Translations under genes and position numbers: made by a program
Notes under the pieces: generated by a model
What the model was told of the DNA's origin: nothing
Databases searched by the model: none
The model's input: the letters and a program-made list of their open reading frames with translations, nothing else
In this document: piece by piece, positions 81-845 of the stretch
Numbering within the stretch: position 1 is the first letter of the stretch
Layout of the letters: each line of letters opens with the position of its first letter
Sequence record: PV691511.1
Source of the DNA: Escherichia phage WPEC2
Length of the DNA stretch: 64,000 nt
Strand: one strand, 5' to 3'

Positions 81-110
81 TTGACAACCAATAGTAAAAT
101 GTAGTATAGT
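81..110 (+). promoter_or_regulatory. sigma70-type promoter for tRNA cluster (-35 TTGACA 81-86, 18-nt spacer, -10 TATAGT 105-110)
   Basis: Consensus -35 and 5/6 -10 read directly; first tRNA begins about 12 nt downstream. Confidence 0.55.
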
Positions 111-121
111 AAAGAGGTAGG

Positions 122-195
122 GCGTTCTTGGTGTAGCGGTAGCATTCCGTCCTTCCAAGTCGGCGGCACGAGTTCGATCCTCGTAGAACGCTCCA
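122..195 (+). tRNA. tRNA-Gly (anticodon UCC), CCA encoded
   Basis: Hand-folded cloverleaf: acceptor GCGTTCT/AGAACGC, T-arm ACGAG-TTCGATC-CTCGT, anticodon loop CTTCCAA; one T-T mismatch in anticodon stem. Confidence 0.7.
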
Positions 196-293
196 AATTA
201 TTTAATAAAGGGTTGCCAGAAAACTTTCTCTTTTACTCATGGTTTTCTCCTTCTCTCACACCTCTTCTGGTTGCCCTTCATTAAATGATTTAT

Positions 294-369
294 TGGTTTG
301 TAGTGTAGTCAGGTAGCACACGACACTTTGACTGTCGTAGGTTTGGTTCAAATCCAGACAGACCAGCCA
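294..369 (+). tRNA. tRNA-Gln (anticodon UUG), CCA encoded
   Basis: Hand-folded: U1-A72 first pair and G73 discriminator as in enterobacterial tRNA-Gln; anticodon stem CGACA/TGTCG with loop CTTTGAC; T-loop TTCAAAT. Confidence 0.75.
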
Positions 370-374
370 TATAA

Positions 375-451
375 CGGAATTTAGCTCAGTTTGGTAGAGC
401 ATACGCTTTGGGAGCGTAGGGTCGCAGGTTCGAATCCTGCAATTCCGACCA
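375..451 (+). tRNA. tRNA-Pro (anticodon UGG), CCA encoded
   Basis: Hand-folded: C1-G72 first pair typical of bacterial tRNA-Pro; anticodon stem TACGC/GCGTA with loop TTTGGGA; T-arm GCAGG-TTCGAAT-CCTGC. Confidence 0.75.
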
Positions 452-457
452 ATTTAA

Positions 458-531
458 TGTTTCGTAGTTCAATGGTAGAACCCACGACTGATAATCGTGA
501 GACACAAGTTCGATTCTTGTCGAAACAACCA
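458..531 (+). tRNA. tRNA-Ile (anticodon GAU), CCA encoded
   Basis: Hand-folded: D-stem GTTC/GAAC, anticodon stem CACGA/TCGTG with loop CTGATAA, T-arm ACAAG-TTCGATT-CTTGT. Confidence 0.7.
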
Positions 532-533
532 AT

Positions 534-603
534 TTCCCGTTAGACTTACAGGATAAGAGTTCCACAACTTATTGTGATGCTGGTTCGAATCCAGCACGGG
601 ATA
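534..603 (+). tRNA. tRNA-like element with aberrant anticodon arm (possible pseudo-tRNA or non-canonical tRNA); 3' end reads CCU not CCA
   Basis: Canonical T-arm GCTGG-TTCGAAT-CCAGC and a 6-bp acceptor stem, but no 5-bp/7-nt anticodon stem-loop can be drawn (only CACAA/TTGTG around a 4-nt loop); body about 3 nt short. Confidence 0.3.
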
Positions 604-609
604 CCTAAT

Positions 610-688
610 AGCGGGATAGAGGAGTCTGGTCGTCCTCGCCAGTTTCATATGCTGGAGATCATTGGTTCAAATCCAATTCCCGCCTCCA
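610..688 (+). tRNA. tRNA with anticodon CAU (Met; could be fMet or Ile2), CCA encoded
   Basis: Hand-folded: anticodon stem CCAGT/GCTGG with loop TTCATAT, T-arm ATTGG-TTCAAAT-CCAAT, 11-nt D-loop, A1/C72 unpaired. Confidence 0.6.
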
Positions 689-803
689 AATATCGCTTGC
701 CAGCGGTATCTTTGAAGACCTTGCCTGGTTCCTTCTAAGATGGAGGGGTGCGACTCCTTAACGCACAATTATAATAAAGCATTTCAAATTAACAGTATTT
801 ATT

Positions 804-827
804 AGCCTCCTTATTGGAGGCTTTTTG
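804..827 (+). terminator. rho-independent terminator after tRNA cluster
   Basis: Hairpin AGCCTCC-TTATT-GGAGGCT followed by TTTTT. Confidence 0.65.
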
Positions 828-845
828 CTATCTATTGAATAAAAC

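Follow-up and report, generated by a model that had tools for sequence, protein, structure and literature searches.

An initiator-like CAU tRNA variant and three further conserved RNAs in the predicted downstream tRNA transcription unit of a phAPEC8-like coliphage

Introduction

Clusters of transfer RNA (tRNA) genes are known from large virulent coliphages such as T4, whose cluster includes tRNAs for A-ending codons. The same holds for the locus described here, a predicted tRNA transcription unit near the start of a 64,000-nucleotide stretch of Escherichia phage WPEC2 (sequence record PV691511.1; this whole stretch is referred to as the window). T4 shares with the tRNA region of this phage and its relatives Gly-UCC, Gln-UUG, Pro-UGG, Thr-UGU, Arg-UCU and a reader of AUA, and we know of no initiator-like tRNA in T4. 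The T4 tRNA region also gives rise to a pair of small RNAs, RNAC and RNAD, whose role is unknown (PMC3014915). The additional RNAs described below are compared with RNAC and RNAD by position.

RNAs other than tRNAs are also found in the tRNA operons of E. coli. The mechanism of one of them, 3'ETS-leuZ, is said to have been reported by Lalaouna et al. in 2015. E. coli tRNA-operon spacer RNAs such as 3'ETS-leuZ are named in PMC6191717. Two accounts of why phages carry tRNAs have been published. Codon compensation was already argued for AGA, ACA and CCA in the 2013 paper on rV5 (PMC3606486), and van den Berg et al. (2023) suggested that mutations in the loops of phage tRNAs let them evade anticodon nucleases (PMC10264068).

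Records of phAPEC8, Mt1B1_P17, phi92-like (Justusliebigvirus) and rV5-like phages annotate canonical tRNAs only, with no hairpin, tRNA-like RNA or 3' element among them. The cluster as such is already known: it forms the downstream half of the Phapecoctavirus tRNA region and has been annotated in dozens of GenBank records. With good confidence, the locus in the window can be described as the downstream transcription unit of the tRNA region of a phAPEC8-like coliphage, which combines tRNAs that most likely compensate for codon usage, an initiator-like variant of a CAU tRNA, and three further conserved RNAs.

The tRNA region and its transcription unit

Positions 1-1270 of the window share 100% identity with Escherichia phages Mt1B1_P17 and vB_EcoM_ESCO37 in a nucleotide search, and phAPEC8 (genus Phapecoctavirus, Stephanstirmvirinae) is 98.9% identical over the same positions. 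These coliphages are virulent myoviruses of about 150 kb, so the likeness to the tRNA sets of large virulent coliphages that was noticed in a preliminary description of the sequence is borne out. The host is E. coli, because the identity is to Escherichia phages at 100% and 106 of the 128 matching records are Escherichia phages. The preliminary description had arrived at a gammaproteobacterial host from tRNA-Gln and tRNA-Pro, which were said to mimic enterobacterial identity elements. The mimicry is real: U1-A72, G2-C71, G3-C70 and G73 of the phage tRNA-Gln are common to the three E. coli Gln genes compared, and C1-G72 and A73 of the phage tRNA-Pro to one E. coli Pro gene. Such elements are widespread in bacteria, so this argument is weak and only its conclusion stands. 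Records labelled as Campylobacter, Acinetobacter and Klebsiella phages also carry the coliphage cluster, with identity reaching about 99% in some, which suggests mislabelled hosts or contamination in some of them.

The unit comprises the following features, together with the three RNAs listed further below:

81..110, + strand: sigma70-type promoter (predicted), -35 TTGACA at 81-86, N18 spacer, -10 TATAGT at 105-110; 11/12 match
122..195, + strand: tRNA-Gly(UCC), G1-C72, C2-G71, G3-C70, U73; encoded CCA; ARAGORN, RF00005 (56.1 bits)
294..369, + strand: tRNA-Gln(UUG), U1-A72, G2-C71, G3-C70, G73; encoded CCA; ARAGORN, RF00005
375..451, + strand: tRNA-Pro(UGG), C1-G72, A73; encoded CCA; ARAGORN, RF00005
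458..531, + strand: tRNA-Ile(GAU), encoded CCA; ARAGORN, RF00005 (72.2 bits)
610..688, + strand: initiator-like tRNA(CAU), encoded CCA; ARAGORN, RF00005 (50.1 bits)
804..827, + strand: intrinsic terminator, AGCCUCC-UUAUU-GGAGGCU hairpin at 804-822 (7 base pairs, 5 of them G:C), then UUUUU

Over the full 64 kb of the window ARAGORN calls five tRNAs and no more, each on the + strand, and the Rfam family RF00005 returns the same five at 50.1-72.2 bits (gathering score 29; E 1e-7 to 8e-14). Both tools agree with the folds and anticodons that had been assigned by hand; no fold was rejected and no anticodon changed. The 3' CCA, read directly from the sequence, is genomically encoded in all five as claimed earlier. 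The phage Pro tRNA shares 83-86% identity over about 59 nucleotides with T4-like Pro tRNAs. Public records of Mt1B1_P17, phAPEC8 and their relatives carry the five tRNAs in unchanged order at 98.9-100% identity, and the core order Gly-hairpin-Gln-Pro...CAU is retained in sister genera.

The view of the locus as a compact cluster holds for the five tRNAs and needs revision in two respects. The window opens inside a larger tRNA region: complete genomes have six further tRNAs within 1.3 kb 5' of position 1 and thus outside the window (CAU, Arg-UCU, Ser-GCU, Tyr or pseudo-GTA, Asn-GUU and Thr-UGU), and the five window tRNAs are the downstream half of an 11-tRNA region. Moreover, the apparent spacers at 196-293, 532-609 and 689-803 are not empty.

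A promoter ahead of the tRNAs and a strong terminator behind them had also been described, and both are well founded. Four diverged lineages (the window, PaulScherrer, L020 and L029) preserve the hexamers of the 11/12 promoter site and their N18 spacing but differ in the sequence of the spacer, and a start of transcription a few nucleotides before tRNA-Gly is predicted. The terminator, a 7-base-pair hairpin with a T run, is directly preceded by an A/U-rich linker at 769-803. An equivalent terminator is present 3' of the trailer element (see below) in PD06, L020, L029 and KP2025. Two observations count against this description. A promoter scan of the local 1.4 kb is not above chance (3 sites vs 2.6 expected). 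The stretch from the upstream tRNAs to the 81-110 promoter shows no evident terminator, so the unit may not be independent and may also receive read-through from upstream. Over the whole window, nine sites score at least 11/12 against 2.1 expected in Markov-1 random sequence. The eight others are at 16509, 20936 and 33074 on the + strand and at 61506, 52269, 43926, 21040 and 16958 on the - strand; such an excess, roughly fourfold over random, would fit a phage that relies heavily on host RNA polymerase.

Taken from the sequence, the proposed course of expression is that host RNA polymerase would start at the 81-110 promoter and stop at the 804-827 terminator, and that host RNase P and 3'-processing enzymes would cut the single precursor into five tRNAs already bearing CCA. 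The same precursor would carry the spacer hairpin, the tRNA-like RNA and the 3' pseudoknot element.

The CAU tRNA

The acceptor stem of the CAU tRNA contains an A1xC72 mismatch followed by G2:C71, C3:G70, G4:C69 and G5:C68, with U73 as the discriminator. The anticodon stem CCAGU/GCUGG includes A29-U41, G30-C40 and U31.G39 and holds the loop UUCAUAU; A11 pairs with U24 and the variable loop is AGAUC. The preliminary description had noticed the unpaired A1/C72, which the folds confirm, and had left the identity open between Met, fMet and Ile2. GenBank labels are equally varied (Met, 'Pseudo-CAT' or fMet), and the analysis now leans towards an initiator-like tRNA.

The only E. coli BLAST match of the CAU tRNA is metY, between argG and rimP-nusA. 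Its global identity is 68% to metY (fMet), 58% to metT (Met) and 55% to ileX (Ile2). E. coli tRNA-fMet (metY, metZWV) has in common with the phage tRNA the CAU anticodon, the lack of a strong 1:72 pair, G2-G6, A11:U24, the variable loop AGAUC, the T loop UUCAAAU and G30:C40. The phage tRNA thus has a CAU anticodon without a strong 1:72 pair, G2:C71, C3:G70 and a purine 11:pyrimidine 24 pair, all of which are expected of an initiator. A weak or mismatched 1:72 pair drives formylation, rejection by EF-Tu and resistance to peptidyl-tRNA hydrolase (PMC5393177). The anticodon stem of the E. coli initiator has three G:C pairs, of which G30-C40 alone is essential, and a mutant with au/GC/gu pairs supports growth (PMC5389676).

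An elongator tRNA-Met is quite unlikely, even though most GenBank records carry the label tRNA-Met, the anticodon stem is not initiator-like, and U32 and U38 are typical of elongators. The strong 1:72 pair and the pyrimidine 11:purine 24 pair of elongators are both absent. No lineage has a strong 1:72 pair, which would exclude EF-Tu binding (PMC5393177), and position 11 is A in the CAU tRNA vs a pyrimidine in the four neighbouring elongator tRNAs. In addition, metY is closer than metT, and AUG is not enriched in the phage.

Comparison of lineages gives further support to the initiator-like reading. Position 1:72 is A.C, U.C, A-U or unpaired and never G-C or C-G. Pairs 27:43 and 28:42 covary and the T stem also has compensatory changes, while A29-U41, G30-C40, U31.G39 and the loop UUCAUAU are invariant among the lineages compared. 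The CAU tRNA is nearly identical across genera whose other tRNAs have diverged. A scan of IMG/VR with the CAU anticodon arm recovered the same signature in three viral contigs that are unrelated (111 kb, 545 kb and 73 kb), after 13 of 16 new loci had been discarded as coding sequence. The scaffold is also found with other anticodon stems in Caulobacter phage phiCbK, Aeromonas phage Assk and Kolesnikvirus phages. The same comparison bears on the possibility of a decaying pseudogene, for which one might cite the label 'tRNA-Pseudo-CAT' in the tRNAscan-based annotations of Mt1B1_P17 and phAPEC8, the lowest RF00005 score of the five tRNAs (50 bits), the 1:72 mismatch and the non-canonical anticodon stem. 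Such a mismatch is normal for initiator tRNAs (PMC5393177), the CCA is encoded, and the signature recurs in unrelated phages. The near-identity across genera, with covariation in two stems and an invariant anticodon arm, rules out decay for practical purposes and leaves a pseudogene very unlikely.

A tRNA-Ile2, in which the host enzyme TilS would turn C34 into lysidine so that the tRNA reads AUA, has a still slighter chance of being correct. T4-type phages do carry an AUA-reading CAU tRNA, and AUA makes up 17% of Ile codons in the phage vs 4% in E. coli. Nevertheless, ileX is the least similar of the three host tRNAs (55%), and the phage tRNA has G4:C69, G5:C68 and A29:U41 where ileX has C4:G69, C5:G68 and C29:G41, which we take to be determinants for TilS. 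The need for an AUA reader is also already covered, since an ileX-like CAU tRNA lies upstream of the window. This tRNA (L001 1766-1840, about 1.2 kb 5' of position 1) is annotated as tRNA-Met, has C4:G69, C5:G68 and C29:G41, is 75% identical to ileX, and is probably an AUA-reading tRNA-Ile2.

Several features weigh against an ordinary initiator. Of the G:C triplet 29:41/30:40/31:39 only G30-C40 is kept; where E. coli tRNA-fMet has G:C pairs the phage tRNA has A29-U41 and U31.G39, and U31.G39 is in the opposite orientation to the tested G31:U39 mutant. The resulting au/GC/ug stem is absent from the mutants assayed in PMC5389676. E. coli tRNA-fMet also has a C32-A38 pair and a base triple of A37 with G29-C41 (PMC2528185). 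The phage tRNA has U32, U38, A29-U41 and U73 in place of C32, A38, G29-C41 and A73. Its D loop is longer than that of E. coli tRNA-fMet (79 nucleotides in total for the phage tRNA), and a Klebsiella-phage lineage has U11:A24 vs A11:U24 in the window. Because the C32-A38 pair, the G29-C41 partner, two of the G:C pairs and A73 are lacking, the CAU tRNA is termed an initiator-like variant and not a canonical tRNA-fMet. On comparative grounds it is best read as a phage-specific initiator-like variant rather than a canonical tRNA-fMet, Ile2, elongator Met or pseudogene, and this resolution of its identity toward a recurrent phage-specific form is new here. It keeps the acceptor features for formylation and exclusion of EF-Tu as well as the essential G30:C40 pair, and would supply an initiator tRNA during infection.

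The altered anticodon arm also touches on nuclease evasion. Enteric VapC is reported to cleave tRNA-fMet between A38 and C39, in earlier work as cited in PMC4105405. The corresponding positions of the phage CAU tRNA are U38/G39 vs A38/C39 in the host, and they are invariant among the phages. The phage CAU tRNA is therefore like the tRNAs of van den Berg et al. in being altered at or next to a known cleavage site. It differs in another respect: phages generally avoid tRNA-fMet (PMC10264068), whereas the fMet-like tRNA here is conserved and widespread. The phage form is possibly resistant to host nucleases that cut tRNA-fMet at A38/C39.

Codon usage and the reasons for carrying the tRNAs

The codon usage of the phage was taken from 59 crude open reading frame (ORF) calls in the window (18,313 codons, 39.1% GC), and that of the host from only 17 annotated E. 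coli K-12 genes (5,896 codons). The shares of the codons that concern the Gly, Gln and Pro tRNAs are as follows:

GGA, share of Gly codons: phage 27%, E. coli 8%
CAA, share of Gln codons: phage 72%, E. coli 27%
CCA, share of Pro codons: phage 36%, E. coli 18%
CCU, share of Pro codons: phage 53%, E. coli 15%

CCA and CCU together account for 89% of the phage's Pro codons vs 32% in E. coli. Gly-UCC, Gln-UUG and Pro-UGG would read A/U-ending codons whose use in the phage (39% GC) is two to three times that in its host (51% GC), and codon compensation is therefore the most likely reason for carrying these three. The four codons most enriched in the phage are AGA, ACA, AGG and AUA, and the enrichment of AGA, ACA and AUA matches the upstream Arg-UCU, Thr-UGU and Ile2-like tRNAs. 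The other two tRNAs of the window do not follow this pattern. AUC and AUU together are not enriched in the phage (50 vs 54 per 1000 codons), nor is AUG (21.5 vs 25.3 per 1000 codons). The comparison of codon usage suggested by the preliminary description thus came out in favour of compensation for GGA, CAA and CCA, and compensation does not fit Ile-GAU or the CAU tRNA. These two exceptions, together with the small host sample and the crude ORF calls, are the points that weaken a general explanation by codon usage.

A different explanation is that the tRNAs are mainly an anti-defence supply, in which nuclease-resistant or extra copies would uphold translation once host tRNAs are cut or broken down, and codon matching would be secondary. 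This hypothesis has been published (PMC10264068, PMC11555353) and would give a role to Ile-GAU and the CAU tRNA, for which codon usage offers no explanation. In its favour, the CAU tRNA and host tRNA-fMet have different bases on either side of the VapC cut (PMC4105405), and position 38 of tRNA-Gln is C in the phage vs U in E. coli. The fit of the tRNA set to the codons most enriched in the phage is striking, however, and known nuclease targets do not predict it; any nuclease resistance of the phage tRNAs is putative. As the main reason for the whole set, anti-defence supply is a possibility we regard as rather doubtful. Codon compensation and anti-defence supply are not mutually exclusive.

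Three further RNAs in the unit

The stretches between and behind the tRNAs contain three RNAs that are conserved, unannotated, and backed in their predicted structures by comparison of relatives. None of them corresponds to an Rfam family at the gathering threshold or at E<=10, where only tRNAs were returned. Weak RyhB and MicA matches in Rfam are explained by the terminator plus an A/U-rich stretch.

The first of the three fills the spacer between tRNA-Gly and tRNA-Gln:

193..290, + strand: spacer hairpin RNA, outer stem 196-206:280-290, inner stem 208-221:265-278, loop 222-264

RNAfold gives this hairpin -24.2 kcal/mol (z = -5.7), and 0 of 200 shuffled sequences were as stable. A hairpin occupies the same site in PaulScherrer (Justusliebigvirus), two Klebsiella-phage-like lineages and others. 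The arms of the stem diverge and yet still pair, and the loop is almost identical across lineages with a near-invariant core at 225-253, UUUCUCUUUUACUCAUGGUUUUCUCCUUC. In a comparison of four sequences 100% of the cells are paired, and at six pairs both partners have changed. A covariance model (R1) from which the window sequence was left out recovers the copy in the window at 59 bits (E ~6e-11); each genome yields a single copy, and the sense strand scores far above the antisense strand. Since MAFFT mis-registered the hairpin and the tail, its alignment was replaced by covariance-model alignment and explicit segmentation. In the six-sequence alignment to the model, which is fitted to the model and so favours structure, 98.6% of the cells are paired and both partners have changed in 13 of 24 pairs; slid controls reach 37-58% of cells paired and no more than 3 such pairs. 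About 29 nucleotides of the loop stay almost invariant while 13 of 24 stem pairs have changed, a pattern that suggests that the loop is recognised by its sequence.

The loop core CUCAUGGUUUUCUCCUUC is the exact complement of AAGGAG-N6-AUG, an idealised Shine-Dalgarno sequence (SD), spacer and AUG. A micro-ORF on the minus strand of the loop, with a strong SD and ATG, was considered, and a coding role for it was rejected. Its length is 12, 8, 12 and 47 amino acids across lineages, an indel of one nucleotide shifts the frame between the window and PaulScherrer, R1 favours the tRNA-sense strand, and many pairs are G.U on that strand only. In an IMG/VR scan with the 18-nucleotide loop motif, 20 of 26 loci were ordinary gene starts with a ribosome-binding site and ATG and were discarded by context. 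A hairpin is also seen in the Vequintavirinae phages A73 (L040 2990-3088) and W70 (L046), where the order is Gly, a 99-nucleotide hairpin, Gln, Pro and terminator. The A73 hairpin has a CU-rich loop containing GAUCACUCUUCUCCUAAUC, which we take to resemble the 3' end of 16S rRNA. Despite the same position between Gly and Gln, it could not be aligned to the window hairpin and R1 did not match it.

The second RNA lies between tRNA-Ile and the CAU tRNA:

534..606, + strand: tRNA-like RNA, acceptor stem 535-540:596-601 (6 base pairs), canonical T arm at 579-595, no encoded CCA

It folds unaided into a cloverleaf, in which the 'anticodon' arm (563-576) is a hairpin of 5 base pairs with a loop of 4 nucleotides and the D region is unusual. 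Neither ARAGORN nor Rfam (RF00005) calls it a tRNA, even at E<=10. Five variants are present among near-identical genomes, and their changes, including a deletion of one nucleotide, cluster in the short loop. Homologs were found in W70 (Vequintavirinae, 84%) and phiEB49 (Drexlerviridae); the latter is annotated as tRNA-Val and ARAGORN reads its anticodon as AAC. The most stable folds of both homologs again have a short-looped anticodon hairpin. A D region of UUAGRCUUACAGGAUAAGA and the T arm are common to the window RNA and these homologs, the D region thus being conserved in three phage families. In the window phage this RNA cannot decode, and it may be what is left of a tRNA, a handle for processing or a decoy.

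The third RNA follows the CAU tRNA:

689..768, + strand: 3' trailer element, with a hairpin at 690-709 and a candidate H-type pseudoknot at 742-766
742..766, + strand: candidate pseudoknot, S1 742-745:754-757, S2 748-752:762-766, L1 GG at 746-747, L2 A753, L3 758-761

The trailer follows the last tRNA in six lineages and is unique within the window. On its 3' side there is either the terminator directly or a small inserted ORF and then the terminator. In the two helices all of the 54 cells are paired and both partners have changed at three pairs, in what is a small sample, and the interleaved helices fit a candidate H-type pseudoknot in this model. An alternative helix, 731-736:742-747, is compatible with all lineages. 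The position of the trailer, between the last tRNA and the 804-827 terminator, is that of a 3'ETS-type RNA. Like 3'ETS-leuZ, it is a non-tRNA RNA in the transcribed spacer or trailer just before an operon terminator. It differs from 3'ETS-leuZ in that a small ORF parts trailer and terminator in several phage relatives. There is no similarity in sequence or Rfam family between 3'ETS-leuZ and the window elements, and a role with Hfq or as a sponge would be proposed here by analogy. Two other roles were tried for the trailer. A 5' untranslated region is argued against because the next ORF of the window has a promoter-like site of its own, and an Hfq-type small RNA is weakened by the ORF between trailer and terminator in several relatives.

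For all three RNAs the sequence comparison may point to roles in processing, stability or regulation. One explanation is that they are scaffolds for processing and stability (an RNase III stem, an RNase P/Z handle and 3' protection) or a tRNA relic, with no function of their own; we consider the chances of this evenly balanced. RNase III substrates have about two helical turns, and the hairpin, with its stems of 11 and 13 base pairs (a duplex of about 24 base pairs) and one internal mismatch, falls in this size class. The tRNA-like RNA evolves faster than its neighbours and has an indel-prone loop, and relatives gain or lose tRNAs, an 88-nucleotide insert and an HNH endonuclease at these junctions. 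Against mere scaffolds stand a nearly invariant loop of about 29 nucleotides on a stem changed at 13 of 24 pairs, a tRNA-like D region conserved in three phage families, and a 3' element that keeps both interleaved helices through compensatory changes. A more far-reaching explanation is that the tRNA operon in phages of the phAPEC8, phi92 and rV5 types delivers functional RNAs: a formylated class of initiator tRNA that escapes VapC, a hairpin RNA acting in trans on translation initiation regions through its complementary loop, and tRNA-like and pseudoknot RNAs with regulatory or decoy functions. We put this forward tentatively, as the less probable of the two.

Variation among relatives and neighbouring features

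Comparison of relatives shows the tRNA junctions to be hot spots of insertion and deletion. At the Gln|Pro junction (369|375 in the window), phAPEC8 and nieznany have a structured insert of 88 nucleotides (L003 3370-3462) and PATM has an HNH endonuclease gene (L037 2725-3084). ECML-183-2 has about 60 additional nucleotides between the Pro and Ile tRNAs (L005 2900-2962), and ZCKP1 has an insert of about 800 bp at a tRNA junction. An apparent anticodon switch is seen in an IMG/VR relative (L024 8146-8221, minus strand), where a homolog of tRNA-Ile(GAU) with an otherwise identical body has a CAU anticodon (loop CUCAUAA vs CCGAUAA in PaulScherrer). CUA-anticodon tRNAs, called 'Pyl' by ARAGORN, are found in related and unrelated phage contigs (L020 9301-9375; L051 1816-1889) and are possible amber suppressors.

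A non-canonical tRNA-Trp-like gene, which the window lacks, separates the CAU tRNA from Ile-GAU in Justusliebigvirus and in Klebsiella-phage lineages. It is conserved and covarying, and is found at about 2636-2719 in L007 with equivalents in L020, L029, L038 and L039. It has the loop CUCCAAA, A1-U72, G73-CCA, and GAUUUAAA inserted ahead of the D hairpin, and it was overlooked by ARAGORN, Rfam and annotations.

Upstream of the promoter, window positions 1-75 belong to a conserved structured RNA, forming its 3' end; it measures about 170 nucleotides and lies between tRNA-Thr and the promoter (elsewhere at about 2905-3075 in L001 and, on the minus strand, about 5045-5230 in L020). Its terminal hairpins (window 31-43 and 47-66) covary, with GGG/CCC vs GGA/UCC and GGGAUA/UGUCCC vs GAGAUA/UGUCUC, and no Rfam family matched it. 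Right after the terminator there is a second promoter-like site at 846-874, TTGACT-N17-TAAGAT with a preceding TG, followed by a 98-amino-acid ORF at 896-1192 (phrog_3330) whose function is not known. The late module lies shortly downstream of the tRNA unit on the same strand, with spanin, terminase, portal, capsid and tail genes. A 197-amino-acid ORF at 55655-56248 on the minus strand is annotated in phAPEC8 as 'nucleotidyltransferase'. It was rejected as a CCA-adding or tRNA-repair enzyme, as it has no Pfam domain, a generic PHROG name only, and no tie to tRNA.

Significance

The cluster itself adds nothing new. What is added is the identity of the CAU tRNA, three unannotated conserved RNAs, and a testable link to nuclease evasion. 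Structured RNAs that are conserved, yet missed by tRNA finders, Rfam and genome annotation, can lie in the supposed spacers of phage tRNA clusters, and those embedded here echo the unexplained RNAC and RNAD of T4. For the debate on why phages carry tRNAs, the CAU tRNA offers a concrete example of one that goes beyond codon usage, being conserved and altered at what would be a cut site in its host counterpart.

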